From: a virus
Reading direction: 5' to 3' (one strand)
DNA: 64,000 nucleotides
Virus record (IMG/VR): IMGVR_UViG_3300021963_000113
Location: 3,835-67,834 of that record
Below are positions 980-57,039 of the stretch, in pieces (within the stretch, counting starts at the first letter, position 1; every line of letters begins with the position of its first letter). Position numbers and translations under genes: made by a program. The notes beneath the pieces were generated by a model. It was not told the DNA's origin, ran no database searches, and saw only the letters and a program-made list of their open reading frames with translations.

Positions 980-3900
980 TTAAATCTCCATCAAGAACCA
1001 ACCCTGCTGCTCTCCAGCGATACTATTTCCTGCTGCATCTGTTTCCCCGACATAGATAAGACCAAAAGCAGCATTTGGAGTGTTAACAACCAATTCACCA
1101 CCTCCATAATTAGATGCCCCACCCAAACTACTACCAGTTGGACTTCCTTGTAGAGATGTGCCAAGAGGTGCTCTAATAACTAGATTGACACTAAAGTTTA
1201 GAGCTCCACCAACATCAACAACTCTAATTGTATCTCCAGTAAGAGCGTCCTGAGGAAGTAATAAAACTAAAGTAGATGAAGGTCTAATCAAGTATTGAAT
1301 ATTTGGTCTCAATTGATATTGAGTATCAGATTGGGCAGATGCTTGATTGTTTCCTTGAGCACTAATAAAGACTGTTTTTCTGCCACCATTAGCATTATAG
1401 AAGTTTTCGTGTCCGAAAGCTTGTATAGAAGCATCCTGTCTAATTCTAAATGGTTTTGAATTATTATTACCTAAATTATTAATACTTAAGTAATTAACAG
1501 CAGCAGTAGGAGTACTAGTATAAGAGCCATGTAATGTAAGTGTTGCACCAGTGGCAGCAGAAGTTAATTCTCGTCCAATTACTGTACTACCTAATTGAGC
1601 GTCAACAGAGAATCTAGTAGTAAATGGATTTTGTCCAGTTTCCGTTGATGCGGGAGTAGTTAAAGTACCAACTGTCAAGTCATCGCCAACACGTAAAGTG
1701 CCTGCAATTTTAGTATTGCCAGTAGCACCCAATACTTCAAGTGCAATATTTTGTGCTACATCTTCTCTTCCTTTATCGAAATTACCAGAAGCAAAGAAGG
1801 AATCTTTAAAGATTTTGAGATTACCACCATTATAGATGCTTGTATTTCCAGATGCGGATTCGACATAGAATTTTGGAAGAGATCCATTAGTAATTACGAA
1901 ATACTGTTTTGCTGGTGTAGAAGTAGAAGTATTACCACTCAACTCAATTGAATTATGTACAATTAAGTTTCCGCCACCAGTTGCAATAATTGGATTTCCG
2001 TCCTTATCAACATCTGGTTTAGAAGTGCTAGATGGGAATCCATAAGAATCTGCTAGATTCTGGTCATTATCAGCATCATTAAATGGTTTAGTTGTATCAT
2101 AACCAATTACAACGTCACCAGAAATTTGTGTGTTACCTGTAGTTGATATTGTTTCAAATACTTTTAATGCATCTTTTTCAAATGATTCATTACCAAAATC
2201 TCCATTATTAATGACAAACTTCTGAGCATCTGCAGGATTTACCTGTGTAATTCTCACATATTCGCCACCTTCATTCAAACTTACCTTATTAAGTCTAAAC
2301 AAATCATTAATTTTGATATTTGCAGAGAATTCAGCAACATTAATAGCATTGCTAACGGCCGTTATTGGATTTGGATCTATATACGATGCATTTTGTTGCT
2401 CAACTAATCTGTAAATTCTCTGTCCATCTGGGTGAGATGATGCAGCTGTTCCTCTTTGTGCTCTTATAACTTCAACGTAGAATGGTTGTGGGCTATTAGG
2501 CACAAATGTGGATGGGAAATTAACTGTCTGAATAATTTCTTCACCAATTAAATACAATTGATTAATACCAATACCCGTTGGATTACTAATAGGAAGATTC
2601 CATGTTTGAATTCCATTAAAAATTCTATTCTTGAAAGAATCGTTGCCCCAGGGAACATCACCAGTTGTATCAATCACAGTGGAGAATAATCTCATTCTAG
2701 CATTACCTGCATCAGTAGTGCCAGATCTAAGTGCAATAGTGATATTATTATCAGAACTATTTTTTAATGTAAATCCTGTGGAATCTCTACTTGCAACATA
2801 ATAAGTTACATTAGTAGAAACGCCAGTTAGATTACCAACATCAAAAAATACTACCGCATCGTTTTGACTAAACCAATAATTATCAGAAAGTAATTTATTA
2901 TTTACTACTGTATTGATTCTAACAGTGCCATCAAAATTAGGAACAACAGAGAAATAATCGATATTCAAATTATCAAGACTACCAACCGACTGAGTAAGTC
3001 CTATATTTGTAATTACAGTACCAGTTGCTGCAGCCTGTGGATAATTAATACCAGGATTAGTATAAGTAAATGAATTTGGTCCAGTTACAGTAATTGCTAC
3101 TTGTCCGACCGTATTAAATGAATCGACACTACTTACAATTTGAGCAGTAGAAGAAATATTATGTGGGGAAACAGTGGTTACAGTCGCAACGCCATTAGAT
3201 CTTGTAAGAGTTGCAATTCTAATAGTGCCAAAGATATTTCTATTAATACCAAGATTGGTGTTTTTCAATCCACCATTTTGAGTAACATCAGATTCAAAGA
3301 ATGAAGAACCTAATACTTTCAATCCATTTCTGATTGTAGTTGTGCCAGCAACACCACCAAGAGTTAATGTACCAACACTTAAACCAATATTAAGTTTAGT
3401 AATTCCAGATGGGAATAGAGTGAATTCATCATTCAATGAAGTGGTATTAATTTCACCACCATTAATAGTTAATACACCATCAACTATAGTCTGATAATTT
3501 TTAATGTTGAAGAAACTGGACTGTCTGTTTAAGAATGCTCCACCAAAAGTAATATTTGATGAATATGCAGTATCATTATTTTCAACCGTGCCAATATCAA
3601 TTATAGAATTAGTAGCATTAGTATGAATATTGAGAGTTGATGCACCAGTTACCGCAGTGCCAATATTTACAGTTTGCTGGGTTGTTGCGAGATTTCCAAC
3701 ATTAACTGTTGTTGCATATCCAGCAAGAGTAAGATTAGTAGTGCTAGTCTGATTGGCAATTGTAAAGACACCCGAAGTAGTGCGAATATCTCCACCATTT
3801 ACATCAATATCAGATTCAAATCTGAAATCACCAGTGATTCTACCAGTGCCAGCAACCACAAGTGCTCTATCCAATGCACCATCAGCAATATTAATACCAA

Positions 3901-6900
3901 CTCTACCCTCATTATTTGTAGCAATTCTAAATGTTGCTGTGGTATCTGGATTCGCACTATCACCACCGACTAAGAAAGCATGTCTTGTTGGTAATGGAGT
4001 GCCACCATTAAGATTAGAGAAGTTTGTTTGCTTCTTGCCGCTGATAAAGGCGTTACCAACAACATCAAGGTTTGCTCTTGGCTCAGTTCTTGTTGGGGCA
4101 ATAAATCCAGTTGCATAATCAGTAGAAAGAGCTCTAGCAAGAGTGTTAATACCTAACTTATAATCACCATATGTTTCTGTTTCTGTGCGAAGTGCTTCAG
4201 CACCAATAACACCAACTTCTTTCCACTGCGACTCACCACGAGCAATTTCAAGAGTGCCTTGAATGATTGGATTTGTTGAAGAAATATATGGAGGATTGCC
4301 AGATAATGTAGCTTCAGACGCTCTTCTCGTTAGGAGATAAACATAACTGTTTGATTCGGAGTATTCATATCCTTCAGATGGATTGTCGTATACAGTGTGG
4401 ACACCATTAATAAACTGAAGTCTATCTGTGCCGCCAGTGATTCTGATTTGCGTTGACCTTGTGATTCCGAGAGAAGCTCCAGGATTAGAAGTGCTAAAAT
4501 TAATTTTTCCAATCTGGAAAATTAATTTAACAACATTGAGGTTTGGATAGAATTGTACGCCTGTAATATCAATCGATGATTCTTGTCCAGCAGGTGCGCC
4601 AAGTCTATATGCAACATAAGAATTTGCATAAATCCAACCAAGAGAACCAGTATAATTAATCTGTGCCCCTTTGAGTATTACATCACCAGAAAGAGGAACA
4701 GATGAACCAAAGGCAATAGTTTGTGAAGAATCAAATCTTGCTTTAGCACCAACAGTGAATTGGTTAGGAGTTACGTTTGTAATTGAAGTGCGGAATGAAT
4801 AACGCTGGGTGCCGCGTGTATTCATATCGAATATAGCAGCTCTTACTCTATTCTTATCAATTACAACGTCACCAGCTCTTGTAGTATCAAGTTGGGGGTC
4901 ATCATCACCTGGGAATACACCCTGTCTATCTCCAGGTCTAGAAACAATAGTGAGAGATGGAGGCGTCATGATTGCCTCAAACTCTGGGTCAACATTAATA
5001 GTAACTGGAGAGTTGAAGAAGTTAGTTAAATTTGGTGGAGCATTGAGAGTGATAATATTCTCAAAAGTAACGGGATCTTCAAATACCGTTACGAGGCTAC
5101 CGAAATCTCCATCCTCTTCTGTCTCTTCATCTGTAATAATAGCATCGAGAAACTCTTCTTCACCAGTAATAGCATTAATCTTACGGTTACCGATGTAAAG
5201 CTCACCATTAGAGTTAATACCAGTATAGAATACAATACCAGCATCTTGACGCTTGGACTGTGCATAGTAATCTTGTACAGAAGTTAAGATAACAGTTTGT
5301 CTTGCTGGGAAACCAGTTGAGTAGTTACCAGGACCAAAACCAAGATATTCAAACGTGTGGTTACCTGCACGAGCAATAGATGGTCTACGTAATTCAACAT
5401 AGATTCTTTGCTCTAATGGGAATTGAGAATCACCAGCAATAGGAATTAGTCTTTCCTCAGCCCCAGAAGACGCTGCGCCAGACCTTGCTTCAATCTTAGT
5501 TGCATTTGTAGTGAATTCATATCTACCAGATCCAGGATCTTGAATGAAATCTAATACTGCTTCCTTAGTGATGCTATTCTTAGCATCATTAATTGTTACT
5601 AGACCATGGATGTAGTTATCTGCCGCACAAACAGATGCTGGTGGGTCGATGATAGTTGTATTCTTATTACCACCTTGAGAATCAGAACCATCATACTGGA
5701 ATAATAGTGCATCATTTTTATATGATAGTGGATATAGTCTAGATACTGGTTGACTAAACTTAAAGTTTCTGAAGTTGGTACCAACTCCAGATCCAGTTGG
5801 ATATGGGGAAATATCACCACGAATACACGTTAGGTAGTAAATACCATCTTGCTGGCGTGGAATTCTTCTTTGAATAGTTTCAATTTTGTAAATATAATAT
5901 GTTTGTGCTAGGTCTTCTACATCTTCAACACTCACAACACGATACTGTCTAGCAGCATCGTCAGTAATGATGTCACCTGGAGTTACTGTGTAAACATTAG
6001 ATGCCTCAACTGCATATAAGAAATTTTTCTTATCCTCTTTTCCAAAGTTTGGTCTAGAGATAAGTTCAGCAATTACATTTGCTTCCCCATCAATTTCCTG
6101 AATAAAGAATGTTTGAGTCTTTTCATCAAAATCTAATTCGCCTTCCAAATCCTTTAGAATGAGATAATTGAAAGTTTCTGTGCCACCCTCTACTGGCTCT
6201 GTTCCATACCATGAGTGGACAATAGCAGATCCAGTGTATTCACCATACCATCTAATTCTCTTTTCAGGAACAAAGTTTCCATTACCACCCTGAGGTTGTG
6301 CAACTTTTACAGTTACAAATCTCTTTGCTTTTAGCGATTCTACATCAAGTCCATGGTCGAATACAACCATTTCCATGTATCCACCTTCAACAATCTTCGC
6401 AGATTGAATTGTAAATGAGATATTACTTTCAGTCTTGGTGCCTTCAATTCTCTTTCTAATTTCTGGATTATAAGGATCGTAAGTTCCCAATACATTAGTT
6501 ACACCAATTCTTTCTCTTGGTGATGGACCATTCTGGAAGAATGTCGCATCTTTCTGGTCGTTAGCAGAAACAGGCTTAAGTAGTAATCTCTGAGGTAAAA
6601 GTTTTCTAGTTTCGTCAGTTCTAATTTTAATAGCAAAACCATTGATAGGATCTCTAACATCATCACGATAGTTAGGAATTACATAACGTAGTTTGTAAGT
6701 TCTATCGTCATTTTCTCTAGTATCATCTGCTCTGTAGAAGAATGAGTCTGGAGTTCTGGGTGGTTTGTTAACATATGAAGAACCTCTAGATGGGTCATTC
6801 AATGTTAATCTTTCGTAGATTTCATTACCTTGTAGAAGAGTTCTGATAAACCAACCACCCTGTACAGGGTCATAACCAATAGGACTTCTCTTTCTGTTTG

Positions 6901-9900
6901 CAAGTACAAAGAATTCTTCTCCACTTGGGAAATTAAATTGTACAGCATTTTGTCTATTAATAGCATCAGATACTGATGTATAAATCGAGAATTGATTATT
7001 CTTGGTATATGTTGCTGGTCTACCAACATAGTAGTTTCTATTTGTTTCTAGTCTACCACCAGATGTTTTTGCAGGTAGAGTAGCGAGAGCAGCAGCATCA
7101 ACGATTCCATTGGTTAGATTTTCTTCTAGTGGATAGAAGAATACTTGCTGAACCTGGACACCAGCATATGCAGTATCAAATACGTTATTGGTTGAAGTTT
7201 CAAATACTCTGGAACTTGTTAATTTAGCAGTATAGCGGTGCAAATCGTAATTAACATTTGTCAAATATTGATGAACTTCAATCTGAACATCTGGGTCAAT
7301 TCCACTAGTCTCAGAAGAATAAATGTAGTTACCAGCAGTAGCATTTTCGATGCTAGTTGCAAGCATAAATGACTGAGTATTATTAAATTGTGCTGTTGCT
7401 CCACCAGCAGAATAATCATATGGTGCAGTAATCTTACCAGGAGCAATTACATAATAATTTTTGTTGCTTTCAAATCCTTTTGGTAATCTTACGAGACGCT
7501 TATCAACATCAACTGGTTTACCAGTAGAAGGATCTTTTCTTGGAACAGCAACAAGTCTTACTGGTGTGCCTGTTTCTAGATTGTGTGGATTGCTACCAGA
7601 TACTTTAAATAGAGTTGCTCTCTGTGCAAACGAAGTTGTGTTTACAAGTTGAGAAATGAGAGGCTCGGCATCAACACCATTCTTAATAATGTTTTCAATT
7701 ACTCTCATCTTCTCGATGATAGCATCCTTAGTACCAGCACACTTGTTAGCACTTGTGTCTACAATAATACTATTGTCTCTTTCAGGCTTTGTTCTTTCAG
7801 TATATTCATCTGTACCAAAAGTTTTTGGAGGAAGTGGAGATAGATTTTGAAGAGCGCCGAGAAGAATATCAAACTCAGTGGCAATGGTATAAGCAACATC
7901 TGCACAACGAGGAACTCCAGCAGTTGTAGTATCAATAGTAGGATCAATTTGATAATCTAAAGTTGTATTTGGGCGCTTAACATACAATGGATCGGAGTCT
8001 GTGCCATCACCAGTTCTCCAGTTACGCATCGCAAGAATAGCAAGATCTCTTGCCTTCTTATATGCATATACACTAATATCCAACTCACCAATAAGTGATG
8101 CTGCCCCAGCATTATATTTCAGAGCAGGATACTGATAAGAACCATTTTGTAGTTTTGTGAGAAGAATATTGAATAGTGAATTAATTTCGTTTCTTACATC
8201 AAGATAGGCATTAGGATTATCATTTGGAATGTTTGGACCAGGAACGCCTAATTCTGCTGGGCCAACAGGAATACCAAAATCTCTTACATTGAGTTGATTT
8301 GTTACTGCCTTGAAGCAAAGGTCTCTAGCAGCTTGGAATGCAGTTACTGACTGAGCAATTTCGCCAGCAAGTCCATTGTTTAATAGAGTATTGCCAGTGC
8401 TATCAAAATATGACTTGGTTGCAGTAATAATATTATAGTTTCCACCTAGAGCAAGGTCTTCTGCGATAGAATCAACAATGAATCCGATGTCACGCTTACA
8501 CTTAGCTTGGAATTCTGGTGCGCTACCATAATTAATTGGAGGTAATGCTGGATTTTGTGTAGTGCCAGTTACTAAATCACCTTGACGAATTCTAGCAAAA
8601 ATAATATTAGAAAGTGTATCTAATGTTGCTTGGACATTAGAGCAAGATTGACTATCATCATTGTTAGCAGTTACACCAGGAGTGCCAAATACGCTTAATC
8701 CAGATTGAGGAGTGCCAGGTGCTGGATCTCCAGTTAGAGAAAGATCTTTAACAGTTAGTTGGTTAGTAATTGCCTTCTTCATTTCGGCAATTGCCGCAGT
8801 GTAGGCAAAGATAGATTTTTGCTCTTCACCTTGAAGACCATTCTGAATCCATGCCTGCTCTACTGTAGAAACAGTTACTACAACATCATCAACTACATTA
8901 ACACCACCAATAGAAGATCCAGGAATAGTTACTGTATTACCAGCAACATACTTATAACCAGCAGCGTTAATAGTAACAGATGTAATTGCACCAGTAGAGC
9001 TTCTGGTTACATTGAAGGTAGCTCCCACACCGCTACCATTTGTCGTAGTTGAAACGCCAGTGTAAACTCTATTCTGTCTATTGGAAAGAGTAGTGCCATT
9101 GCTACGGGTAAAGGTTAAGATTTTGCCATTAACTTTATCTTCAATAAAATATTGACGAATAAAATCAATAGAATATGAGTTTCCTAGTGTAGTTAAATCA
9201 GTAGAAACTGCATCAATAAAATATCCGATATCACGCTTACACTTGTTTTCTAAATCTGCTGGAGCAGGTGTTGGAAGGCCGCTAGCAAGTAGAGCATTAT
9301 AAGCATTATTAATAATTTCTGCTCTATTTTGCTGAATTAGACGATATGAATCCTTATATCTTGAATAAACATTTGTCTGAGTATCTCCACCATCTGTAAA
9401 TCCAGGTCCACCATAATAGAAATCTGGATATTCGATAGCAAGTTTTGCAGCTGCTTTGTCTACAATTTCTCTTCTATTTGAAAGAATAAGATTCTTGGAA
9501 TAAGCATAACGAGAAGGAGCTCCAACATATGCTTCTGTAGCAGTTACAATACCAGAGTTGCCAGTTGTTTTAAGGTCTTGAATTACACCATCAAGCACTA
9601 AACCAATATCACGCTTACACTTAGTATCGTTTGGCACTGTAACTGTTGGGTATTGTGCCTTAGCAAGATTGAGTGCTTCTTCTGCAATAAAATCTTTGTT
9701 GCGATTGATTAAAGTGCCAGCATCAAATGCTCTACCAGATGAGGTAGCAAACTTACCTTGCTCTAATTCAAAGTTGAGTGTAACACCACCAACACCAATA
9801 GAGTTTGCAGTAATGGTAATGAGTGCTTGCACCTCCTCAGTATCATTTCTGTTACCAAGTTTAAATTGAGTTGTGTTTACAATTTCTCTAATATAGGTGC

Positions 9901-12343
9901 CAGCAGGAATTGGATTTGTTTGACCAGAAGCAACTGTAGCAGTTACTTTCATGCCCTCTACTAATCCAATAGTAGTGATATTGTTGGGTACAGTAACTGT
10001 TGATTGTCCAACAAAAGTTGAGCATCCTTCAATACGGAAATTCCAATTACGCATTGCAGCAACTGCAAGATTTCTAGCGTAATTAAATGCATCAAGAGTT
10101 TCTTCCTTCTCTGTGCTGATATAATCTAATTCGTTACCAACATAGTATGCTTGTGCTGCCTGGACGCTATTAACATTACCACCAACACGAAGGTCATTGG
10201 CAACTGCTTCTAGGATATAACCTACGTCACGCTTACACTTATTGATGCTGATGGGTCTAGTGAGAAGATATGGATACTTACGAGTGATGTATCCATATGT
10301 TTCAGCAGCAATGAAATCTCTGTTTAAATCAATAAGATTTGCAGCATCTTGGTCGTTGTTTGAAACTCCAGTTGCTACGCTTGGACTCAAAATAGATAGA
10401 GAAACATTCCACTTCTGATAACCAGATGGAGAAATTTCTGCACTGCGAATAGCTCCAGTAAATCCCTGTGCTGGATCTAGTTTAACATAAATTTTTTCGT
10501 GTGCAGCTGCGCCAAGACGATAACCATTTACAGTAGTAGATGGTTTTTGTAAAGGATTAGATGCTTCATCCTGACCATAATATAGTTTTGTTGTAACAGA
10601 AGAATTGCCGTTGGGACCATCAAAGTTTAGAGCATTTGGATTTCTAGACTTGATTTGATTGAATGTGAAATACTGGAATTTCTTAGTTGTAGTGGTAACT
10701 TTTCTTGGTGGGACAATGTGCGAAATATATCCACCTTGATCCTGGGCAAAGGAATATCCCTTATAACCAATAGCATGTAGAGAGGTATTACCAAAGTTAG
10801 AGTTTGAGTTGGTGATAGACATATCACCACCAGACTCCATGAGGAAGTGGTCAGCGAAACCTACAGCGAAGATAGAAACGTTTTGAATGAATGCGTCATT
10901 CGATGCTTTAACGTGGAAGTTTCTCCAATCATCTTTCCAGTATGCGTCACCCTTAGTGTGGTAAGGTGTGGTTGCAAACGCATCAGTAAGAGGTGCCTGA
11001 TTCCAAGTGTTAGAGAATTCATCGTAGCGAATGAATGCTCTGTCGTCTCTCTGTAGCGAAACACCCGTATACTGGGCGATAACCATCGACTTGAAACCAC
11101 TTGCCTTGGATCCATCAGCGTGGATGCCACAGATACCCCACGTAGAGCGGATAGAGACGTTGAAGACGTATGGTGAGGCAGATTCTACCGAGTCAACTTC
11201 CGCTTGCGTGATGGCGTTTGTATCGAGCGTAGGAGGCGTAATTGGTTGCCCAATTCTATCGCCTAATCCTACAGCAGCAGCATTCTTACCTTCTACACGA
11301 TACGAGAATTCTTTAGGATCACTAATGCTGATTCCTCTAACAGCAAATACACCAGTGAGAGGGTCATTTGCAAGTGGAATTGGCTCGCTAGCACCTGCAG
11401 GAAGAGTCGAACGAAGATTCGCAACAGCAACTGCTTGTCCTACATAATATCCATGATTTGTCTTCGTTCTAACAGTGACATCTAAAGCAGTGGTGCCAGG
11501 GACATTATTAACTTCGATAGAATCAATACGAATAGCATCTTGAAGAGGACCAACAATTCTATTTTCTTGTGGTCTCTGAGTAAATTCACCAGGATCGTCA
11601 ATTGTTGGTTGGAATAGAGAGAATGCCTTAGCAATCTTTCTGTAAAGTAAACCTAGATCGTCTCTACTAGCAAATTCAAAGTTACAAATTTTGTGGTGAG
11701 AATAATAAGGTATAGATTTAATAGTAGAATTTGGTTGAGAATAAACTTTACCAATTCCTTCATTTTCATCATACAATGGTGAATTAGGATCAACATCACC
11801 ATCAAGAATAGTAAACTGCCAGAAATAGCATCCACCAGTTACGTTAAAAAGGGTTGTGCGACCGATATCCTTGTCTGCTGGGTCTGGAACATAGAGAGGA
11901 TGCAGACGAGTCCTACGGAGGTCCATACCAACGAGAGAGGTGCCTCTAGGAATCGTAGCGCCACCGTTAGGACCGTTAAACTTGTAGAGAATATTATCAG
12001 GATTGCTGAGGTCTACAATCGAGTTATCTTCCCACTCTTGTGTTGCTTGATTGAATGCAAAAGGAACAATTTCCTCTGCATTCATGATGCCAGGACGGTT
12101 ATCAATATAGTGGTTGCCTGGCGACAACATAATTGTAAATTGGTCAAAACGATCATTCTCTTGACCAGGAACATACGAATACCTAGCAACCTCTAGGAAT
12201 GCTCTCTGAATTGTGAGGAAAGGACGGGTTGGGGAGTTGCCTCTATTGTCTAATGCATCAGAAGCATTAAAATCGTCAGGTGAAACATATAGATATCTTC
12301 CAGTTTTACTAGAAATTAAATTCTCTAATTTGGTTAGTGGCAT
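980..12343 (-). CDS. Giant (3787 aa) cyanophage structural/fibre protein with four internal phycobiliprotein-like units
   Basis: N-terminus MPLTKLENL..YVSPDD..GNSPTRPFLTIQRA is typical of large cyanomyovirus structural proteins. Beta-rich C-terminus, four KCKRD repeats, late promoter upstream. Confidence 0.8.
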   Translation of the reverse strand: MPLTKLENLISSKTGRYLYVSPDDFNASDALDNRGNSPTRPFLTIQRAFLEVARYSYVPGQENDRFDQFTIMLSPGNHYIDNRPGIMNAEEIVPFAFNQATQEWEDNSIVDLSNPDNILYKFNGPNGGATIPRGTSLVGMDLRRTRLHPLYVPDPADKDIGRTTLFNVTGGCYFWQFTILDGDVDPNSPLYDENEGIGKVYSQPNSTIKSIPYYSHHKICNFEFASRDDLGLLYRKIAKAFSLFQPTIDDPGEFTQRPQENRIVGPLQDAIRIDSIEVNNVPGTTALDVTVRTKTNHGYYVGQAVAVANLRSTLPAGASEPIPLANDPLTGVFAVRGISISDPKEFSYRVEGKNAAAVGLGDRIGQPITPPTLDTNAITQAEVDSVESASPYVFNVSIRSTWGICGIHADGSKASGFKSMVIAQYTGVSLQRDDRAFIRYDEFSNTWNQAPLTDAFATTPYHTKGDAYWKDDWRNFHVKASNDAFIQNVSIFAVGFADHFLMESGGDMSITNSNSNFGNTSLHAIGYKGYSFAQDQGGYISHIVPPRKVTTTTKKFQYFTFNQIKSRNPNALNFDGPNGNSSVTTKLYYGQDEASNPLQKPSTTVNGYRLGAAAHEKIYVKLDPAQGFTGAIRSAEISPSGYQKWNVSLSILSPSVATGVSNNDQDAANLIDLNRDFIAAETYGYITRKYPYLLTRPISINKCKRDVGYILEAVANDLRVGGNVNSVQAAQAYYVGNELDYISTEKEETLDAFNYARNLAVAAMRNWNFRIEGCSTFVGQSTVTVPNNITTIGLVEGMKVTATVASGQTNPIPAGTYIREIVNTTQFKLGNRNDTEEVQALITITANSIGVGGVTLNFELEQGKFATSSGRAFDAGTLINRNKDFIAEEALNLAKAQYPTVTVPNDTKCKRDIGLVLDGVIQDLKTTGNSGIVTATEAYVGAPSRYAYSKNLILSNRREIVDKAAAKLAIEYPDFYYGGPGFTDGGDTQTNVYSRYKDSYRLIQQNRAEIINNAYNALLASGLPTPAPADLENKCKRDIGYFIDAVSTDLTTLGNSYSIDFIRQYFIEDKVNGKILTFTRSNGTTLSNRQNRVYTGVSTTTNGSGVGATFNVTRSSTGAITSVTINAAGYKYVAGNTVTIPGSSIGGVNVVDDVVVTVSTVEQAWIQNGLQGEEQKSIFAYTAAIAEMKKAITNQLTVKDLSLTGDPAPGTPQSGLSVFGTPGVTANNDDSQSCSNVQATLDTLSNIIFARIRQGDLVTGTTQNPALPPINYGSAPEFQAKCKRDIGFIVDSIAEDLALGGNYNIITATKSYFDSTGNTLLNNGLAGEIAQSVTAFQAARDLCFKAVTNQLNVRDFGIPVGPAELGVPGPNIPNDNPNAYLDVRNEINSLFNILLTKLQNGSYQYPALKYNAGAASLIGELDISVYAYKKARDLAILAMRNWRTGDGTDSDPLYVKRPNTTLDYQIDPTIDTTTAGVPRCADVAYTIATEFDILLGALQNLSPLPPKTFGTDEYTERTKPERDNSIIVDTSANKCAGTKDAIIEKMRVIENIIKNGVDAEPLISQLVNTTSFAQRATLFKVSGSNPHNLETGTPVRLVAVPRKDPSTGKPVDVDKRLVRLPKGFESNKNYYVIAPGKITAPYDYSAGGATAQFNNTQSFMLATSIENATAGNYIYSSETSGIDPDVQIEVHQYLTNVNYDLHRYTAKLTSSRVFETSTNNVFDTAYAGVQVQQVFFYPLEENLTNGIVDAAALATLPAKTSGGRLETNRNYYVGRPATYTKNNQFSIYTSVSDAINRQNAVQFNFPSGEEFFVLANRKRSPIGYDPVQGGWFIRTLLQGNEIYERLTLNDPSRGSSYVNKPPRTPDSFFYRADDTRENDDRTYKLRYVIPNYRDDVRDPINGFAIKIRTDETRKLLPQRLLLKPVSANDQKDATFFQNGPSPRERIGVTNVLGTYDPYNPEIRKRIEGTKTESNISFTIQSAKIVEGGYMEMVVFDHGLDVESLKAKRFVTVKVAQPQGGNGNFVPEKRIRWYGEYTGSAIVHSWYGTEPVEGGTETFNYLILKDLEGELDFDEKTQTFFIQEIDGEANVIAELISRPNFGKEDKKNFLYAVEASNVYTVTPGDIITDDAARQYRVVSVEDVEDLAQTYYIYKIETIQRRIPRQQDGIYYLTCIRGDISPYPTGSGVGTNFRNFKFSQPVSRLYPLSYKNDALLFQYDGSDSQGGNKNTTIIDPPASVCAADNYIHGLVTINDAKNSITKEAVLDFIQDPGSGRYEFTTNATKIEARSGAASSGAEERLIPIAGDSQFPLEQRIYVELRRPSIARAGNHTFEYLGFGPGNYSTGFPARQTVILTSVQDYYAQSKRQDAGIVFYTGINSNGELYIGNRKINAITGEEEFLDAIITDEETEEDGDFGSLVTVFEDPVTFENIITLNAPPNLTNFFNSPVTINVDPEFEAIMTPPSLTIVSRPGDRQGVFPGDDDPQLDTTRAGDVVIDKNRVRAAIFDMNTRGTQRYSFRTSITNVTPNQFTVGAKARFDSSQTIAFGSSVPLSGDVILKGAQINYTGSLGWIYANSYVAYRLGAPAGQESSIDITGVQFYPNLNVVKLIFQIGKINFSTSNPGASLGITRSTQIRITGGTDRLQFINGVHTVYDNPSEGYEYSESNSYVYLLTRRASEATLSGNPPYISSTNPIIQGTLEIARGESQWKEVGVIGAEALRTETETYGDYKLGINTLARALSTDYATGFIAPTRTEPRANLDVVGNAFISGKKQTNFSNLNGGTPLPTRHAFLVGGDSANPDTTATFRIATNNEGRVGINIADGALDRALVVAGTGRITGDFRFESDIDVNGGDIRTTSGVFTIANQTSTTNLTLAGYATTVNVGNLATTQQTVNIGTAVTGASTLNIHTNATNSIIDIGTVENNDTAYSSNITFGGAFLNRQSSFFNIKNYQTIVDGVLTINGGEINTTSLNDEFTLFPSGITKLNIGLSVGTLTLGGVAGTTTIRNGLKVLGSSFFESDVTQNGGLKNTNLGINRNIFGTIRIATLTRSNGVATVTTVSPHNISSTAQIVSSVDSFNTVGQVAITVTGPNSFTYTNPGINYPQAAATGTVITNIGLTQSVGSLDNLNIDYFSVVPNFDGTVRINTVVNNKLLSDNYWFSQNDAVVFFDVGNLTGVSTNVTYYVASRDSTGFTLKNSSDNNITIALRSGTTDAGNARMRLFSTVIDTTGDVPWGNDSFKNRIFNGIQTWNLPISNPTGIGINQLYLIGEEIIQTVNFPSTFVPNSPQPFYVEVIRAQRGTAASSHPDGQRIYRLVEQQNASYIDPNPITAVSNAINVAEFSANIKINDLFRLNKVSLNEGGEYVRITQVNPADAQKFVINNGDFGNESFEKDALKVFETISTTGNTQISGDVVIGYDTTKPFNDADNDQNLADSYGFPSSTSKPDVDKDGNPIIATGGGNLIVHNSIELSGNTSTSTPAKQYFVITNGSLPKFYVESASGNTSIYNGGNLKIFKDSFFASGNFDKGREDVAQNIALEVLGATGNTKIAGTLRVGDDLTVGTLTTPASTETGQNPFTTRFSVDAQLGSTVIGRELTSAATGATLTLHGSYTSTPTAAVNYLSINNLGNNNSKPFRIRQDASIQAFGHENFYNANGGRKTVFISAQGNNQASAQSDTQYQLRPNIQYLIRPSSTLVLLLPQDALTGDTIRVVDVGGALNFSVNLVIRAPLGTSLQGSPTGSSLGGASNYGGGELVVNTPNAAFGLIYVGETDAAGNSIAGEQQGWFLMEI

Positions 12344-12384: not shown

Positions 12385-12392
12385 TATTTATA
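12385..12392 (-). promoter_or_regulatory. T4-type late promoter TATAAATA for the giant structural gene
   Basis: Exact TATAAATA about 40 nt upstream of the ATG at 12343. Confidence 0.8.
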
Positions 12393-12393
12393 C

Positions 12394-12420
12394 AAAAAAA
12401 CCCCAGGCGGACCTGGGGTT
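12394..12420 (-). terminator. Rho-independent terminator after tRNA-Thr
   Basis: AACCCCAGG-TCCG-CCTGGGGTT followed by a T run on the minus strand. Confidence 0.8.
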
Positions 12421-12442: not shown

Positions 12443-12516
12443 AGCCCAAGGTCGGACTTGAACCGACGACCTACGGTTTACAAAACCGTTGCTCTATCCA
12501 GCTGAGCTACTCAGGC
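12443..12516 (-). tRNA. tRNA-Thr(UGU)
   Basis: Cloverleaf; anticodon arm ACGGT-TTTGTAA-ACCGT. The 5' end overlaps the pebS stop codon. Confidence 0.95.
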
Positions 12517-13143
12517 ATATTCAAAGAGAAATTCGTGTGTATATTTCTCTCCAAACTCTTTACCAAATTTAGAAGACATGTAACCAGAAACAGGATCTAA
12601 CTTTAGCATATATTTGTCAAAATCAGCAAATTCTGTTACATCATCTTCATCTGGTTGTGCTTCTTCTAGTAATTTGGCGTAAGTGCTAACATATTTCTCG
12701 AAATCAGGCAAATATTGCTCAACTTCATCCATATGGCACTTACGCACAAATACATAGCGTGAAAAGTGATTACCTGGCTCAAAGAAACGAATTTCTTTGG
12801 TATTGCCAGCATACTCACCCATGTTTTCCCTCACAATCTCATGATCAAAGTCATAATGCTCTTTTGGGTGTTGAAAATCAAATGTTAGAATAACTTTGTT
12901 TTCAAAGAATGCCATCAAGTCCATTCCCAGACAAGGCAGGTTTTTGCCTGTTTTTGGATAGATGATATTATTATATATTGAAGAAACACCGTGGGAAATA
13001 TCGGTAATTCTTGCTTTTTTGATATACTTGCCCTCGTAGAGCATCGAATCCATCACAATGTCCTTGTGACTATGAGTTTCACTGTATGTTTTGTTTAGGT
13101 CCAGATAGTCAAAAAGTATTTCATGGTATTTGCCCCAAAACAT
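12511..13143 (-). CDS. pebS: Phycoerythrobilin synthase (ferredoxin-dependent bilin reductase)
   Basis: Motifs IYPKTG.NLPCLGMDLM, FDFQHP, RFFE.GNHFS and LDPV.GYM match cyanophage PebS, including both catalytic Asp residues. Confidence 0.92.
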   Translation of the reverse strand: MFWGKYHEILFDYLDLNKTYSETHSHKDIVMDSMLYEGKYIKKARITDISHGVSSIYNNIIYPKTGKNLPCLGMDLMAFFENKVILTFDFQHPKEHYDFDHEIVRENMGEYAGNTKEIRFFEPGNHFSRYVFVRKCHMDEVEQYLPDFEKYVSTYAKLLEEAQPDEDDVTEFADFDKYMLKLDPVSGYMSSKFGKEFGEKYTHEFLFEYA

Positions 13144-13153
13144 AATCGTGTCC

Positions 13154-13420
13154 TCAGTCGTCTTTAGGAAGTAGCTCTGGATTGTCTATTTCTACTTCAA
13201 ACATTAGCGGATGCATTTCTTCCATTATTAAATAATTGGAAATTTTAAACATATCCTCATCATCGTAATCACGATGAGTCAGTGCTTCTGTTTGGACAGC
13301 AGGGTGGTCTTGTATAATCTGAGGTAATTCGTCAAATGTATAGGGAAGACCTTGGATGAAATACATTCGCACAACTTCTCCCATATAGAAGCAGTATGCT
13401 TGTGTTAGTGTGTATTTCAT
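13154..13420 (-). CDS. Cyanophage hypothetical protein (88 aa)
   Basis: Start trimmed to MKYTLTQAY because the longer ORF overlaps tRNA-Leu. Late-type ACTAAATA at 13440-13447. Confidence 0.7.
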   Translation of the reverse strand: MKYTLTQAYCFYMGEVVRMYFIQGLPYTFDELPQIIQDHPAVQTEALTHRDYDDEDMFKISNYLIMEEMHPLMFEVEIDNPELLPKDD

Positions 13421-13453
13421 TACATTTCCCACTACAATGTATTTAGTAGGAAA

Positions 13454-13537
13454 TAGGGCGAGGGAGACTTGAACTCCCACGGGCATAAGCCCAACAGATT
13501 TTAAGTCTGGTGTGTCTACCGATTCCACCACCGCCCC
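13454..13537 (-). tRNA. tRNA-Leu(UAA)
   Basis: Cloverleaf with long variable arm; anticodon loop CTTAAAA. Confidence 0.95.
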
Positions 13538-13671
13538 AAAAATTACCGACAAATAATAGTATCGGTTTTTAGTAGTTTTCTACACTTATCTAGTAGGTCA
13601 AAGAATTCATTAATTGTGGAGCATTTAAGGACAATAGTGGAATTGTCCTCTCCACGAATGATTATCTTCTT

Positions 13672-29360: not shown

Positions 29361-29396
29361 CTAAATAGATACTGAGGATAATATATATTATTTATG
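29360..29396. promoter_or_regulatory. Pair of crossed late promoters between divergent genes
   Basis: TCTAAATA on + (29360-29367) and CATAAATA on - (29389-29396); each overlaps the start codon of the opposite gene. Confidence 0.6.
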
Positions 29397-29828
29397 GCAT
29401 ACTCTGGGAAGTATAGACCTGAAAATCCACAGAAGTACAAAGGGAATCCGACTAACATAATCTATCGGTCTCTTTGGGAAAGAAAGTTTATGGTATTCTG
29501 TGATAGAAATCCCAGTGTCTTGCAATGGGGAAGTGAAGAATGCGTAATACCGTATCGCTCACCTATTGATGGTAGGGTGCATCGTTACTATGTTGATTTC
29601 TATATCAAAATACAAACAAAGACTGGTGAGATAAAGAAATACCTAATAGAAATTAAACCTAAAAAACAAACGATACCACCAGACCCACAGAAAAAACAAA
29701 CAAAAATTTATAAAGATAAAGTATTATCTTACTACAAAAACATGGCGAAGTGGGAAGCAGCTAAAGAATGGTGTGAAGATAGACGCATGGAGTTTCTAAT
29801 ACTGACAGAAGATCACTTAGGAGTCTAA
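29394..29828 (+). CDS. gp4: Head completion nuclease
   Basis: YSGKYRP.NP.KYKG, YRSLWE, WGSEE, RYYVDF, EIKP and N.AKW.AA motifs. Confidence 0.95.
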   Translation: MAYSGKYRPENPQKYKGNPTNIIYRSLWERKFMVFCDRNPSVLQWGSEECVIPYRSPIDGRVHRYYVDFYIKIQTKTGEIKKYLIEIKPKKQTIPPDPQKKQTKIYKDKVLSYYKNMAKWEAAKEWCEDRRMEFLILTEDHLGV

Positions 29829-40188: not shown

Positions 40189-40443
40189 TTATTTCTTCGG
40201 CGGTTCTACGAGTCCTTTTTCTAGAAAGAGTTTTGCTGTCTCCACTAGTCCACCAATTTCTTTACCGTCGATGACAACATGCGGATAACCAGATGCCATA
40301 GGAAACTTAGTCCTAAATTCTTCTGCAGAAATATCTCTATTGATAGAAATCTCTGTGTAAGAAACAGATGCTCTCTTGAAAAGTTGTTTCAAGGTCGTGC
40401 AATAAGAGCATCCAGTATTTGTATATGCTACTACTTCCATCAT
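40189..40443 (-). CDS. nrdC: Glutaredoxin
   Basis: CSYC, YP.V and IGG motifs. Confidence 0.85.
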   Translation of the reverse strand: MMEVVAYTNTGCSYCTTLKQLFKRASVSYTEISINRDISAEEFRTKFPMASGYPHVVIDGKEIGGLVETAKLFLEKGLVEPPKK

Positions 40444-40793
40444 ATTCCTCTATAAACAATAGTAAAAATTGGTTGCTTTGATTCTAGCGCATCCGCCATG
40501 AATCTGCAAGCAACGTCTGGGTTGGTATGATCACCACAAGTAAAGATATCAACAGCAGCGTAACCCTTCTCTGGCCACGTATGAATGCTGATGTGACTTT
40601 CTGATAGCAGGCAGACAGCAGTGATTCCCTGTGGCGTGAATTCGTATTTAACTTCTTCAATCAGTGTTGCGTTAGCATGTTCTACTGCCTGCCTAAGGGA
40701 AGTGCTAATAAAATTAGAATCATTCAAAAGATCTGCATTACACTCACACAACTCAGCGATGTGATGCACACCAAGCACTTCATTAACCATCAA
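40440..40793 (-). CDS. speD: S-adenosylmethionine decarboxylase proenzyme
   Basis: F.PQG.T...LLSESHISIHTWPE.GYAAVDIFTCG. Confidence 0.93.
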   Translation of the reverse strand: MMVNEVLGVHHIAELCECNADLLNDSNFISTSLRQAVEHANATLIEEVKYEFTPQGITAVCLLSESHISIHTWPEKGYAAVDIFTCGDHTNPDVACRFMADALESKQPIFTIVYRGI

Positions 40794-40826
40794 TGTATCT
40801 CCAATGTCGTTGAGTATTTATCCCAA

Positions 40827-40851
40827 TAAAAAAGGGAGGGTCTCCCCTCCC
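40827..40851 (-). terminator. Terminator after psbA
   Basis: GGGAGGG-GAGA-CCCTCCC-TTTTTT on the minus strand. Confidence 0.85.
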
Positions 40852-40876
40852 AGTGTATCAGGTTTTACCCAGAGTG

Positions 40877-41956
40877 TCAACCGATTGCAGGTGCGGTGAG
40901 AGCAACAGGAGTTGCACTAGCAGCAGCAAGGTCAAGAGGGAAGTTGTGAGCGTTGCGCTCGTGCATCACTTCCATGCCCAGACCAGCACGGTTGAGGATG
41001 TCTGCCCAAGTGTTAATCACATGACCTTGACTATCCTGGATGGACTGGTTGAAGTTGAAACCGTTGAGGTTGAATGCCATGGTGCTAACACCAAGAGCAG
41101 TGAACCAGATACCAACCACAGGCCAAGCAGCAAGGAAGAAGTGCAGCGAGCGTGAGTTATTAAACGATGCGTACTGGAAGATCAGACGACCGAAGTAACC
41201 ATGAGCAGCTACAATGTTGTAGGTCTCTTCTTCTTGTCCGAACTTGTATCCGTAGTTTTGTGATTCGTTTTCAGTCGTCTCACGAACGAGTGAGCTTGTG
41301 ACCAAAGATCCATGCATAGCAGAGAAAAGAGAACCGCCAAATACACCAGCCACCCCAAGCATATGGAAGGGGTGCATGAGGATGTTATGCTCCGCCTGGA
41401 AAACAAGCATGTAGTTAAATGTTCCACTAATGCCGAGCGGCATAGCATCAGAGAAGGAACCTTGTCCAAAGGGATACACGAGGAAAACTGCAGAAGCAGC
41501 AGCAACGGGTGCGCTGTAGGCAACACAAATCCAAGGACGCATACCAAGTCGGTAAGAAAGTTCCCATTCGCGTCCCATGTAAGCATAGATGCCAATCAGA
41601 AAGTGAAAGACGACCAGTTGGAAAGGTCCACCATTATATAGCCACTCATCGAGAGAAGCAGCTTCCCAAATGGGGTAGAAGTGCAGTCCAATAGCGTTGG
41701 ACGATGGGACAACAGCACCAGAGATGATGTTGTTTCCATACATGAGTGAACCAGCAACGGGTTCACGGATACCATCAATGTCCACAGGAGGAGCAGCGAT
41801 GAAAGCAACAATGAAACAGATAGTAGCAGCGAGAAGGGTAGGAATCATTAGAGTTCCAAACCAACCGACATAGAGACGGTTATCAGTAGAAGTGATCCAC
41901 TCACAGAACTGTTGCCAAGTATTTGATTGTCGTTGTTGTGAAAGTGTAGCAGTCAT
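40877..41956 (-). CDS. psbA: Photosystem II D1 protein, intron-free, with Glu at the position-130 equivalent
   Basis: Full D1 sequence from NRLYVGWFG to HNFPLDLA. Confidence 0.99.
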
Positions 41957-48143: not shown

Positions 48144-49988
48144 ATGTCGATTAAAAAAATTCCTATTGCTATTGGAATTAAACCAAATCAGGTAGCAACA
48201 TTTACCAACAAAACTCTTGATGGCACCCAGAATATATTTCAGAATATTCCAACAGGTGCTCTGCAGTTTAATACCATTACAATTAATGGAAGCACTATTC
48301 CTCTTGGCGGTTCTATCAACATTCAAGCTCAAGGTGGAGCTCCAATTGTTGATACCAACACTACTTATAGCATTAAAGCATCCACTGTTACTAGTGGAGC
48401 ACGTTTAGATTTAGATGCTGGTGGTAGTGGAGCAGGCACAGATTCAGTTAACTTCATTGGTGCTGGTAATGTAACTGTGTCTAGAATAGATGACAATACT
48501 ATTAGAATTAGTGACGCTGGAACACTTGGCGGAGTTGCGTTAACTGCAGATAACACTGCAACACTAACAAATAAAACTATCAGTGGAAACACTAATATAT
48601 TATCAAATATTCCAAACACCGCATTAAATAATTCATCCATTACAATTAATGGAGAATCAGTTCCTCTTGGTGGAAGCATCACTATTGCAGGTGGTGGAGG
48701 AGGTGGTTCAGGAGATGTAACTCTTGCAGGAATTCAAACTCTCTTCAATAAAACAATTTCTGGCATATACAATAGTTTTGATAATATTCCAAATAGTGCT
48801 TTATTAAATCCTTTTATTAGAATTAATGGTAATGTAGTTAATTTAGGATCTAATTTTACCGTAACGGGTTTAGGTGATGTAACAACCACGGGAGTCCAAG
48901 ATTTATCAAATAAATCTTTAGCAGCTCCAATTATTCAAGATGCAAAATTAACTGGTACACTCAGAATTGGAACAGTAGGGGGAGGAAACCCTGGGGTAAA
49001 CGGCCAAGTATTAAAATCTACTGGCACTGGAGTTGCTTGGGTTGATGAAAATCGCACTACTGCATCAACACTAGTTGTGGGGTCTGGTCTCACTGGAACA
49101 GGAGGCACTGAGTTTGACGGATCTAATGGCATTACTATTTCTGTCAACACTGGTATTGTTGCTACATTAACTGGCACCCAAACATTAACAAACAAAACTT
49201 TAACAGCACCTAATCTAACAGGCGATTTAAAAATTAATAATGTTTCTGGCACCGCTGGACAAACCATTGTTTCTGATGGCGCAGGTGGTCTCACATGGGG
49301 TGCTGGTGGAGGTGGAGGAAGCGGAAGCTTCAATGGACCAGGATCAGCAGTTGATAATGCTATTGTTAGATTCGATGGAACCACTGGTGCATTAGCACAA
49401 AACTCTTTAGTCACCATCTCAGATACTGGTGTGATTACAGCACCATCTGTAGGAAGCGTAATTCCTTTTTATCATTCAAGTCCATTAGCATTCCCATCTG
49501 CTTCAACATACAACGGAGCAGTAGCAGTTGCAGCAAGTGATAACACTATTCACTTTGCAAGTGGTGGTAACTGGATTCAACTTGCTAAATCCACTGAAGT
49601 TGCAGTTTCTAGTAGACAAACTTTCTCAACTACGACATCAGCATTAGCAAATAATGCACCTGCATACCCAGATATTACTAATGCATACAAGTCTTATCTA
49701 CTATTCAAAATTCAAACTGATAGAGCAGCATGGGTAAGAGTTTACACATCTGTTGCTGCAAGAACTGCAGATTCAACAAGAAGTATTGATGTTGATCCAT
49801 TGCCAGGTAGCGGTGTTATCGCAGAAGTCATTACTACAGGTGCTTCTACTCAAGTATTAACACCAGCGGTAATCGGTTTTAATGACCAAGCATCTCCAGT
49901 TAATACAATTTATCTTGCTGTGACAAATAGAAGTGGCGTAACTGCCGCAGTAACCGTAACATTAACCGCCCTCAAGCTAGAAGCATGA
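48144..49988 (+). CDS. Tail fibre-like protein (614 aa), paralog of 42207-45470
   Basis: Same repeats, and the shared C-terminal AWVRVY..R.ADSTRS..VDP.PGSG.IAEV domain. Confidence 0.75.
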   Translation: MSIKKIPIAIGIKPNQVATFTNKTLDGTQNIFQNIPTGALQFNTITINGSTIPLGGSINIQAQGGAPIVDTNTTYSIKASTVTSGARLDLDAGGSGAGTDSVNFIGAGNVTVSRIDDNTIRISDAGTLGGVALTADNTATLTNKTISGNTNILSNIPNTALNNSSITINGESVPLGGSITIAGGGGGGSGDVTLAGIQTLFNKTISGIYNSFDNIPNSALLNPFIRINGNVVNLGSNFTVTGLGDVTTTGVQDLSNKSLAAPIIQDAKLTGTLRIGTVGGGNPGVNGQVLKSTGTGVAWVDENRTTASTLVVGSGLTGTGGTEFDGSNGITISVNTGIVATLTGTQTLTNKTLTAPNLTGDLKINNVSGTAGQTIVSDGAGGLTWGAGGGGGSGSFNGPGSAVDNAIVRFDGTTGALAQNSLVTISDTGVITAPSVGSVIPFYHSSPLAFPSASTYNGAVAVAASDNTIHFASGGNWIQLAKSTEVAVSSRQTFSTTTSALANNAPAYPDITNAYKSYLLFKIQTDRAAWVRVYTSVAARTADSTRSIDVDPLPGSGVIAEVITTGASTQVLTPAVIGFNDQASPVNTIYLAVTNRSGVTAAVTVTLTALKLEA

Positions 49989-56583: not shown

Positions 56584-57039
56584 TTAAAGTCTCTCCGTGA
56601 CTTGTTTTTCAAAGATATATAGGTCTTTTCCACCCCACACAATTTCACCGTTTTTGATACCAGCATCATAACACAACACCTGATTGCCTGTCAAGGTCAT
56701 TCTGGTTTCCATACGAGCATCATAAAGAATGCATTCTTCGTGATTAGTGCCCTCCCATGCTGTTGATGTGCGAGTGAAAATCATATCACATGGATACTTT
56801 TCCCAGTTGGCATCATAGTTTCTGACAATAATATTATTACCAGAGATTTCTAGTCGATGATACTTCTCTCTATAAGGAGCATCTTCACCAGCATAGTTAT
56901 ACCAGTGCTTAGAGTGAATTTCATTCTCTCCCACTTGCTCCCAATAGCAGTGAATGTATGCAAACTTAGATGGATTTACAAATGCTTGGTCTCTATTGTG
57001 ATAACGACCAAGTAGAAAAGAAAGAAAGTCTTCTATCAT
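56584..57039 (-). CDS. cpeT: T-type phycobiliprotein (bilin) lyase
   Basis: G.Y.N..QA..NP..FA.I, PYR, CDM.F, W.G and D.G...G..VWG motifs. Confidence 0.88.
   Translation of the reverse strand: MIEDFLSFLLGRYHNRDQAFVNPSKFAYIHCYWEQVGENEIHSKHWYNYAGEDAPYREKYHRLEISGNNIIVRNYDANWEKYPCDMIFTRTSTAWEGTNHEECILYDARMETRMTLTGNQVLCYDAGIKNGEIVWGGKDLYIFEKQVTERL

Follow-up and report, generated by a model that had tools for sequence, protein, structure and literature searches.

Does a cyanophage build the fold of its host's antenna proteins into a tail fibre, and might that fibre then carry a bilin chromophore? The question is raised by a giant gene in a stretch of 64,000 nucleotides (hereafter the window) that spans positions 3,835 to 67,834 of the IMG/VR virus record IMGVR_UViG_3300021963_000113, such that a window coordinate is the record coordinate minus 3834. 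The gene (980..12343, minus strand) is an open reading frame (ORF) of 3787 amino acids whose PHROGs matches mark it as a tail-fibre-like late structural gene. A preliminary description, made from the letters alone, had seen four phycobiliprotein-like units in its product and had proposed a bilin-decorated virion. That interpretation is partly supported overall: we have very little doubt that the units are homologous to phycobiliproteins and share their fold, and the further steps, from a bound bilin to a fibre that responds to light, are successively less secure.

The units and their kinship with phycobiliproteins

The motif KCKRD(I/V)G occurs exactly four times in the 3787-residue ORF, with its cysteine at aa 703, 909, 1035 and 1282 (codons 10235-10237, 9617-9619, 9239-9241 and 8498-8500). 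These positions agree with those given in the preliminary description, whose quotation of unit 1 was also correct. The pattern KCxRD appeared in 0 of 2000 shuffles of the giant protein. A hidden Markov model (HMM) made from 95-residue stretches of the four units finds aa 659-752, 868-957, 991-1084 and 1237-1330, and no further unit in any frame of the window (next best ORF, E 0.063).

Broader limits come from a profile (A2) built on an alignment of 109 units from IMG/VR loci, with unit 1 of the window as its first row. All matches lie on the minus strand. Unit 1 (about aa 657-774) occupies 10022..10375 with the codon for Cys703 at 10235-10237 (E 1.6e-43), unit 3 occupies 9011..9388 with that for Cys1035 at 9239-9241 (E 3.8e-32) and unit 4 occupies 8273..8665 with that for Cys1282 at 8498-8500 (E 1.5e-34). 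Unit 2, at 9518..9760 with the codon for Cys909 at 9617-9619 (E 9.3e-30), is matched over profile positions 3-82 only, its C-terminal helix being missing or diverged. Unit 3 has a beta-rich insert after the unit core, and after this unit the last-helix part of the profile (positions 85-121) matches again at 8738-8848 (E 3e-5). A remnant at 7997..8113 is a lone match to the C-terminal helix (profile positions 80-121; E 6e-5) and has no Cys site. The giant protein has 257 giant homologues at E ≤ 0.001. Units were counted in 121 giant proteins (120 listed homologues and our own), which together contain 997 unit matches, from 4 to 33 in each.

With the whole protein as query, PF00502 (Phycobilisome protein) is the sole Pfam family at E ≤ 1, and its 24.0 bits exceed the curated cut-off of 22.2; on aa 640-1620 the same family scores 33.7 bits (E 4.4e-8). 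Single units all fall under the cut-off, with 20.3 bits for unit 2, 14.9 bits for unit 3 and no match for the other two. A phmmer search of all PDB sequences with aa 640-1620 gave five matches, all of them phycocyanin alpha chains, and placed aa 1266-1303 of unit 4 on residues 68-105 of C-phycocyanin alpha, with the unit's cysteine on Cys84 and an E-value of only about 0.1. The 109-unit profile goes further: 115 PDB sequences match at E ≤ 10, and every one of the best 60 among these 115 is a phycobiliprotein or a derivative of one. The best match, at E 1.4e-6, is C-phycocyanin alpha, with profile positions 12-68 on alpha residues 36-103 and the cysteine again on Cys84, followed by a weak collinear second stretch that puts positions 79-112 on residues 128-159. 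Of the 120 listed homologues, 104 have PF00502 flagged in precomputed public tables. The homology that the preliminary description proposed is thus borne out by the Pfam score above cut-off and by profile matches with E-values down to 1.4e-6; judged by sequence, the closest resemblance is to the alpha subunits of phycocyanin and phycoerythrin.

Structure prediction points the same way. The AlphaFold2 model of unit 1, made with the 109-unit alignment, is all-helical (pLDDT 85, pTM 0.76). In a Foldseek search against PDB, ranks 1-30 are phycobiliproteins, with query TM-scores (TMq) up to 0.70 and an rmsd of 2.7 over 120 columns; no match reaches E ≤ 0.001, the phycobiliprotein rows having E-values of 0.014-0.15. 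VIA-align, run on 48,161 representative chains, puts allophycocyanin, phycoerythrin, bilin domains of ApcE and a photocobilin at ranks 1-9 (Z 10.3-11.6, 101-116 residues aligned, rmsd 2.5-3.4). Helical models often reach middling Z scores; this caveat is outweighed here because one family fills the top of the list and because the list agrees with the sequence profile. The fold claim accordingly rests on the ranking, the VIA-align Z scores and the sequence profile, and by these a phycobiliprotein-type globin fold is predicted for unit 1, as had been proposed.

Model residues 1-113 span chain residues of about 27-143 in the VIA-align matches (starts range from about 24 to 43, ends from about 142 to 152). 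In the model, then, each unit is a globin core that corresponds roughly to phycobiliprotein residues 27-143. Nothing in the unit equals residues 1-25, which form the N-terminal X-Y helix pair used for alpha-beta pairing, and the profile match starts at residue 32-36. The B-E loop is about 11 residues shorter than in phycobiliproteins.

These results bear directly on the idea that the resemblance reflects convergence, or an artefact of low-complexity helices, with no homology behind it. The sub-threshold Pfam scores of single units (20.3 and 14.9 bits, and none for two) and the lack of a Foldseek match at E ≤ 0.001 speak for it. Against it stand the profile match to PDB at E 1.4e-6, with phycobiliproteins only among the best 60 of 115; the collinear placement of positions 79-112 on residues 128-159; the PF00502 flag on 104 of 120 homologues; and phycobiliproteins at structural ranks 1-9 among 48,161 chains. 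We regard this explanation as close to refuted.

The bilin site and the other cysteines

Within the 109-unit alignment (unit-1 numbering) the most constant residues include the three expected at a bilin site: Cys49 in 106 of 108 units, Arg51 in 102 of 108 and Asp52 in 108 of 109. Asp63, Asn69 and Tyr79 are each present in 107 of 109, Gly68 in 99 of 109 and Lys48 in 87 of 108, at a mean column identity of 24%. Among 611 unique units from the 121 giant proteins CxRD is kept in 543, and the consensus reads KC(K/R)RDIG..D....DL..GGN. The HMM and the DNA pattern with which units were gathered both contain the motif, so these conservation figures are somewhat inflated; even so, the 611 include 68 units that lack CxRD. 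The proposal that the cysteine occupies the bilin-attachment position Cys84, with the Arg-Asp pair retained, holds for four of four window units, which align to Cys84-Arg86-Asp87. In phycobiliproteins Arg86 and Asp87 hold the bilin, and we know of no other role for them there.

The preliminary description had also pointed to SCSNV (Cys1234), RCADV (Cys1480) and KCAGT (Cys1535) as cysteine-led helices that close three of the units, and had likened them to the beta-155 site served by T-type lyases. The three sites exist in the giant protein and are conserved among its orthologues (21/21, 21/21 and 15/21, the other six being gaps), and their placement was loose: Cys1234 stands where the first helix of unit 4 starts, 48 residues ahead of Cys1282, and Cys1480 and Cys1535 lie beyond unit 4 and outside every profile-recognised unit, where only the C-terminal-helix remnant is found. 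The likeness to beta-155 finds no support in the wider family, since the 109 units share a single conserved cysteine column. There is no second such column in their alignment, the next richest reaching 17 of 109, at the N-terminal end. A substrate of the T-type lyases was looked for as a cysteine in the G-H loop about 70 residues after Cys82, which we take to be the position of the beta-153/155 site, and none was found in the 109-unit alignment.

From aa 703 to aa 1535 there are nine cysteines, and each is kept in 15-21 of 21 orthologues, the remainder being almost all gaps. A helix of about 22 residues recurs after Cys1234, Cys1480 and Cys1535, and once without a cysteine at about aa 1379-1400; such helices form a helical region after unit 4 (window 7484-8100, minus strand; aa 1415-1620). 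For aa 1225-1620 an AlphaFold model, made with 18 alignment rows, reached a pLDDT of 36.6, too low for a fold search.

Host range, gene neighbourhood and adsorption

A tblastn search of 50,697 phage records with aa 640-1620 found matches in 336, and 336 of 336 are cyanophages (by name Synechococcus 272, Cyanophage 53, Prochlorococcus 10, Marine 1). For comparison, a search with a baseplate protein from the window gave 495 T4-like records, 463 of them with cyanophage names and at least 21 from phages that infect heterotrophs (Sinorhizobium, Methylophilales, Pseudomonas, Pelagibacter, Caulobacter, Ochrobactrum); none of these heterotroph-phage names is among the 336 unit-bearing records. Matches in BFVD at E ≤ 0.1 that bear an organism name are all to Synechococcus phages or uncultured Caudovirales. 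The records, the baseplate comparison and the BFVD names agree that the repeat is confined to cyanophages, as the proposal of a bilin-binding repeat had implied. A HMMER search of 1.84 billion cluster representatives, a set without taxonomy, found 1672 proteins at E ≤ 0.001, and single proteins among them had as many as 36 stretches. Run over 185,579 species genomes, a strict four-unit pattern returned eight stretches, of which one was a relative; as a test of absence from cells this is narrow. This sole relative lies on a 4.4-kb contig (CAJXMP010000232.1; our locus L225) in a metagenome-assembled genome labelled Lewinella, and is probably a mis-binned cyanophage contig.

The window itself comes from a T4-like cyanomyovirus and encodes, among others, psbA, phoH and gp32, together with a T4 baseplate protein and a tail tube protein; the virus record is a 67.8-kb fragment estimated to be 35% complete. 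Within the giant protein, phrog_529 matches aa 1-626 (E 2.5e-289), phrog_4527 ('short tail fiber') the C-terminal 2370 residues (aa 1416-3787, E 0) and phrog_5342 aa 655-787. The neighbours of the gene encode a collar-domain fibre protein, baseplate hub proteins, the T4 baseplate protein and the tail tube protein. By profiles and gene position alike the protein belongs with the T4-like cyanomyovirus tail fibre proteins (PHROGs 529 and 4527); on this basis we call it a tail-fibre-like late structural protein, whose presence in the virion of this phage is predicted. The N-terminal 626 residues occur in 459 phage records, every one named as a cyanophage or marine virus, and going by these matches they are a core cyanomyovirus fibre domain. 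Since that domain is core, the units are an accessory element inserted into core fibre proteins.

The gene directly upstream, 167 nt from the fibre gene on the same strand, is pebS for phycoerythrobilin synthase (12511..13143, minus strand; 210 aa; PF05996 E 9.5e-21, 2vck_A E 5.3e-49, phrog_7278). Its end is overlapped by a tRNA-Thr gene with anticodon tgt (tRNA call, 12443..12516, minus strand). Between these and the giant gene lie a strong hairpin like that of an intrinsic terminator (12399..12420, minus strand; nine pairs, then a T run) and the box TATAAATA (12385..12392, minus strand), whose last base is 42 nt before the ATG of the giant gene and which we take to resemble the T4 late-promoter consensus. 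With four copies in the window TATAAATA is not above chance, and its position alone is suggestive. Because the tRNA gene, the hairpin and TATAAATA separate the fibre gene from pebS, the fibre gene is probably a late transcription unit of its own. A tRNA gene beside cpeT is seen also in Syn1 (tRNA-Leu) and S-CAM3 (tRNA-Thr).

The cpeT gene of the window, of the T-type bilin lyase family, is at 56584..57039 on the minus strand (PF06206 38.3 bits against a cut-off of 21; phrog_488 E 1.5e-38). It is a short form of 151 aa: compared with the 172-aa form that adjoins the fibre gene in relatives, a stretch of about 20 residues is missing (alignment A3). No heme oxygenase match was found in the virus's own record, which as a 35%-complete fragment is not informative on the whole phage.

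In other phages cpeT tends to stand before the fibre gene. Centring the search on cpeT, we found that in 35 of 43 IMG/VR loci a giant frame with units begins 0.13-3.3 kb downstream on the same strand. These 35 comprise all 34 loci whose downstream DNA reaches the full 8 kb, and one where it reaches 4.1 kb; in the remaining eight it extends 4.3 kb or less. As a control, units were found in 0 of 80 phoH-centred loci, 18 of them at least 12 kb long. A pebS-centred search yielded few loci: of seven close relatives three were informative, with the fibre gene downstream in two and not in one. Among named phages cpeT lies close upstream of a unit-bearing fibre gene in ACG-2014e, Syn1 and S-PM2, with at most three small genes or a tRNA gene between, and the positions of the cpeT and unit matches agree in S-RSM4, S-CAM1, S-CAM3, S-CAM4, Sf-CH1a and ACG-2014i.

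The bilin genes sit in a variable islet, the left border of which is a small conserved ORF (phrog_4134; 13154..13552, minus strand) and the right border the fibre gene. Homologues of this ORF stand directly before cpeT, pebS or the fibre gene in 15 of 80 unit-centred loci, and it may have a part in the bilin pathway, or may simply mark the border. In relatives the ORF often overlaps cpeT or pebS. The islet holds cpeT, a bilin reductase or both in 10 of 17 orthologous loci with enough upstream DNA; other islets of these 17 carry a 2OG-Fe(II) oxygenase, HNH or an FkbM methyltransferase, and JmjC and Mom occur beside cpeT.

Counts of units can be set beside published adsorption behaviour. Genomes of S-PM2, ACG-2014e, Syn1, P-HM1, P-HM2 and P-SSM4 have 12, 11, 10, 6, 6 and 3 unit matches, respectively, and those of P-SSM2 and P-SSP7 have none. 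S-PM2 reportedly, in work of Jia et al. in 2010, adsorbs only in the light. According to Liu et al. 2019, P-HM1 and P-HM2 fail to adsorb in the dark and P-SSM2 and P-SSP7 do adsorb (PMC6628666), and a review describes light-only adsorption for 'several marine cyanomyoviruses' (PMC2984593). Unit presence fits light dependence in five of five phages, if S-PM2 is counted as light-dependent.

Some further genes of the window may be recorded here. A Peptidase_S8 subtilase of 579 aa (49985-51724, plus strand) lies among large structural genes, and in another locus (L047, 1335-3266) a subtilase and a C1q-domain protein are encoded directly upstream of another unit-bearing giant gene. A protein with a TnsA-like endonuclease N-terminal domain (PF08722, E 1.1e-21) is encoded at 29394-29828 (plus strand), between the tail tube and tail-cap-like genes, and speD, for S-adenosylmethionine decarboxylase, is directly beside psbA (40440-41956, minus strand).

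A possible bilin on the fibre: rival readings and known systems

From the nature of the site, the restriction to cyanophages and the gene neighbourhood we infer that each unit binds a bilin at its conserved cysteine, a proposition that to us stands about evenly poised. The bilin would be attached at the unit cysteine while the fibre is made in the infected cell, and could be either a bilin of the host or phycoerythrobilin supplied by the neighbouring pebS. Attachment might be autocatalytic, as in ApcE and the BBAG globins discussed below, or assisted by the CpeT of the phage or by a lyase of the host. Virions would then be released with a chromoprotein on their fibres. More speculatively, the chromophore could make the conformation of the fibre light-dependent, which would explain the light-only adsorption of some cyanomyoviruses. 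That adsorption is gated by light through the units strikes us as rather unlikely, though worth stating; and the fuller version, in which fibre bilins are the photoreceptor of light-dependent adsorption and cpeT and pebS partly serve pigmentation of the virion rather than the host antenna, we hold to be improbable.

Several observations weigh against this reading of the units as bilin carriers. A bilin on the protein or the virion is something we infer from sequence and models, and the conservation of the motif is inflated by the way in which units were gathered. The units have invariant residues of their own (Asp63, Asn69, Tyr79), besides lacking the X-Y helices and part of the B-E loop, so that the pocket may serve another purpose, and the other cysteines of the region are by alignment conserved in orthologues as well. 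T-type lyases are known to serve the beta-153/155 site and are not known to serve a Cys84-type site. The cpeT of the window is 44 kb from the fibre gene, and a tRNA gene, a terminator-like hairpin and a late-promoter-like box lie between that gene and pebS. Since the islet also holds unrelated genes, adjacency may mean only an insertion hot spot together with conserved gene order; gene order is indeed conserved in these phages, and the metagenomic loci are not independent. In P-HM1 and P-HM2 cpeT precedes fibre genes without units, and in S-SZBM1 and S-B64 it is far from the best unit match. A cpeT match (E ≤ 1e-5) is present in 87 records against 336 with units, so most unit-bearing phages have no detectable lyase of their own. 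P-SSM2 has no units and does carry pebS, PebS having been described from this phage (PMC2984593), and phage bilin genes thus exist without a unit-bearing fibre. The match with adsorption phenotype, finally, concerns five phages of at most three independent lineages.

Many of these points would fit a fibre with no chromophore at all. On this main rival account, a captured host globin core has become a helical building block of giant fibres, a spacer or knob, and Lys-Cys-x-Arg-Asp is kept, with the phage-specific Asp, Gly-Asn and Tyr, for folding, for contacts or for another ligand such as a metal ion. It is a real possibility, if a clearly less than even one. The units are shortened, with no X-Y helices and a shorter B-E loop; their invariant Asp63, Asn69 and Tyr79 (107/109 each) are atypical of phycobiliproteins; and they occur in 4 to 33 copies per protein in many giant structural proteins, like modular fibre parts. 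The excess of records with units (336) over those with cpeT (87) and the possession of pebS by the unit-free P-SSM2 lend it further weight, and none of the papers listed by our literature search describes a pigmented cyanophage particle. What speaks for a bilin instead is that Cys, Arg and Asp are the most conserved positions at a mean identity of 24%, and that a range restricted to cyanophages (336/336) and a recurrent pebS or cpeT neighbourhood would be unexpected for a purely mechanical part.

The conserved cysteine could alternatively serve redox chemistry or cross-linking, with disulfides that stiffen or lock the fibre after lysis in oxygenated sea water. Such a role suits a protein that works outside the cell and in which the nine cysteines from aa 703 to aa 1535 persist across 21 orthologues (15-21/21). 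We think it quite unlikely: with one conserved cysteine column in 109 units (the next at 17/109) there is no regular partner within the unit, and the strict Arg and Asp two and three residues on, like the homology to Cys84, are left unexplained. More doubtful still is the suggestion that the units act in the infected cell as mimics of host phycobiliproteins, soaking up lyases, bilins, NblA or linkers, with no role in the virion. Cyanophages do interfere with the host antenna and carry nblA, cpeT, pebS, pcyA and ho1, according to two sources (10.1101/2024.11.10.622831; PMC2984593). The units, though, are part of a late structural protein with its own late-promoter-like box, they have no X-Y helices for pairing with host subunits, and a fibre of 3787 aa makes an unlikely decoy; we give this suggestion very little credence.

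The purpose of phage bilin genes, above all cpeT, is debated, and the fibre units offer a concrete candidate molecule for them to act on; the same units are a candidate in the mechanism of light-only adsorption in several marine cyanomyoviruses. If bilins are bound, the units would constitute a photoreceptor on a virus particle, the first to be virion-borne, and would show the phycobiliprotein fold in a new role; compact as it is, at about 115 residues, such a bilin-binding module might also find use as a fluorescent tag. If they are not, the fibre still shows clearly how a host antenna protein has become a structural part of the phage. The preliminary description knew of no earlier account, and our full-text search, which left subscription journals and supplements outside it, likewise found no phycobiliprotein domains in phage fibres. 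What is already public is the PF00502 flag in Pfam tables on 104 of the 120 listed homologues. A 2023 paper calls the homologue in S-PM2 (S-PM2d218) a 'very large hypothetical protein', and the word stem 'phycobili' is absent from the available text of that paper (PMC9910659). New here are the immediate adjacency of pebS and the fibre gene, the count of cpeT-centred loci with its control, and the matching of unit presence to published dark adsorption.

Compared with CpcA and CpeA (PF00502), the units are homologous from helix B to the end of helix E, share Lys83-Cys84-x-Arg86-Asp87 and the Gly-Gly after helix E, and are predicted to have the same globin-type fold. They differ from them in occurring as 4-33 tandem or interspersed copies inside giant virion proteins, in lacking the X-Y helices and any H-helix equivalent in the aligned range, in a B-E loop 11 residues shorter, and in their own invariant Asp, Asn and Tyr; the units show no sign of discs or rods, and their chromophore is putative. 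ApcE, the core-membrane linker, offers a precedent for a phycobiliprotein-fold domain within a larger protein of non-antenna context, and its chains reach Z 10.3-11.2 against the unit model. Bilin attachment in ApcE is autocatalytic, and its attachment cysteine sits elsewhere in the domain than that of the units. Photocobilins (PDB 8j2y and 8j2w; Z 10.8 and 9.1 to the unit model) put a phycobiliprotein-like globin to use beyond light harvesting; going by their entry titles, we take them to be bilin-binding globins fused to a B12 photoreceptor for light sensing. They differ from the units in being actinobacterial soluble regulators, at 10% sequence identity. The BBAG globins of heterotrophic bacteria are encoded beside bilin reductase genes, an adjacency that parallels that of pebS and the fibre gene, and are termed 'self-assembling biliproteins' in their description (PMC10151467), which shows that attachment can do without a lyase in some cases. 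Both ApcE and the BBAGs belong to cells, and neither is part of a virus particle, as the phage units are predicted to be. For cyanophages the accepted reading is that pebS, pcyA, ho1 and cpeT serve host pigments, the role of cpeT being described only as regulating or supporting host phycoerythrin (PMC2984593). Our phage too has pebS and cpeT, but with a phage-encoded candidate substrate adjoining pebS, and this, as far as our literature search shows, is the first such candidate beside bilin genes in print.

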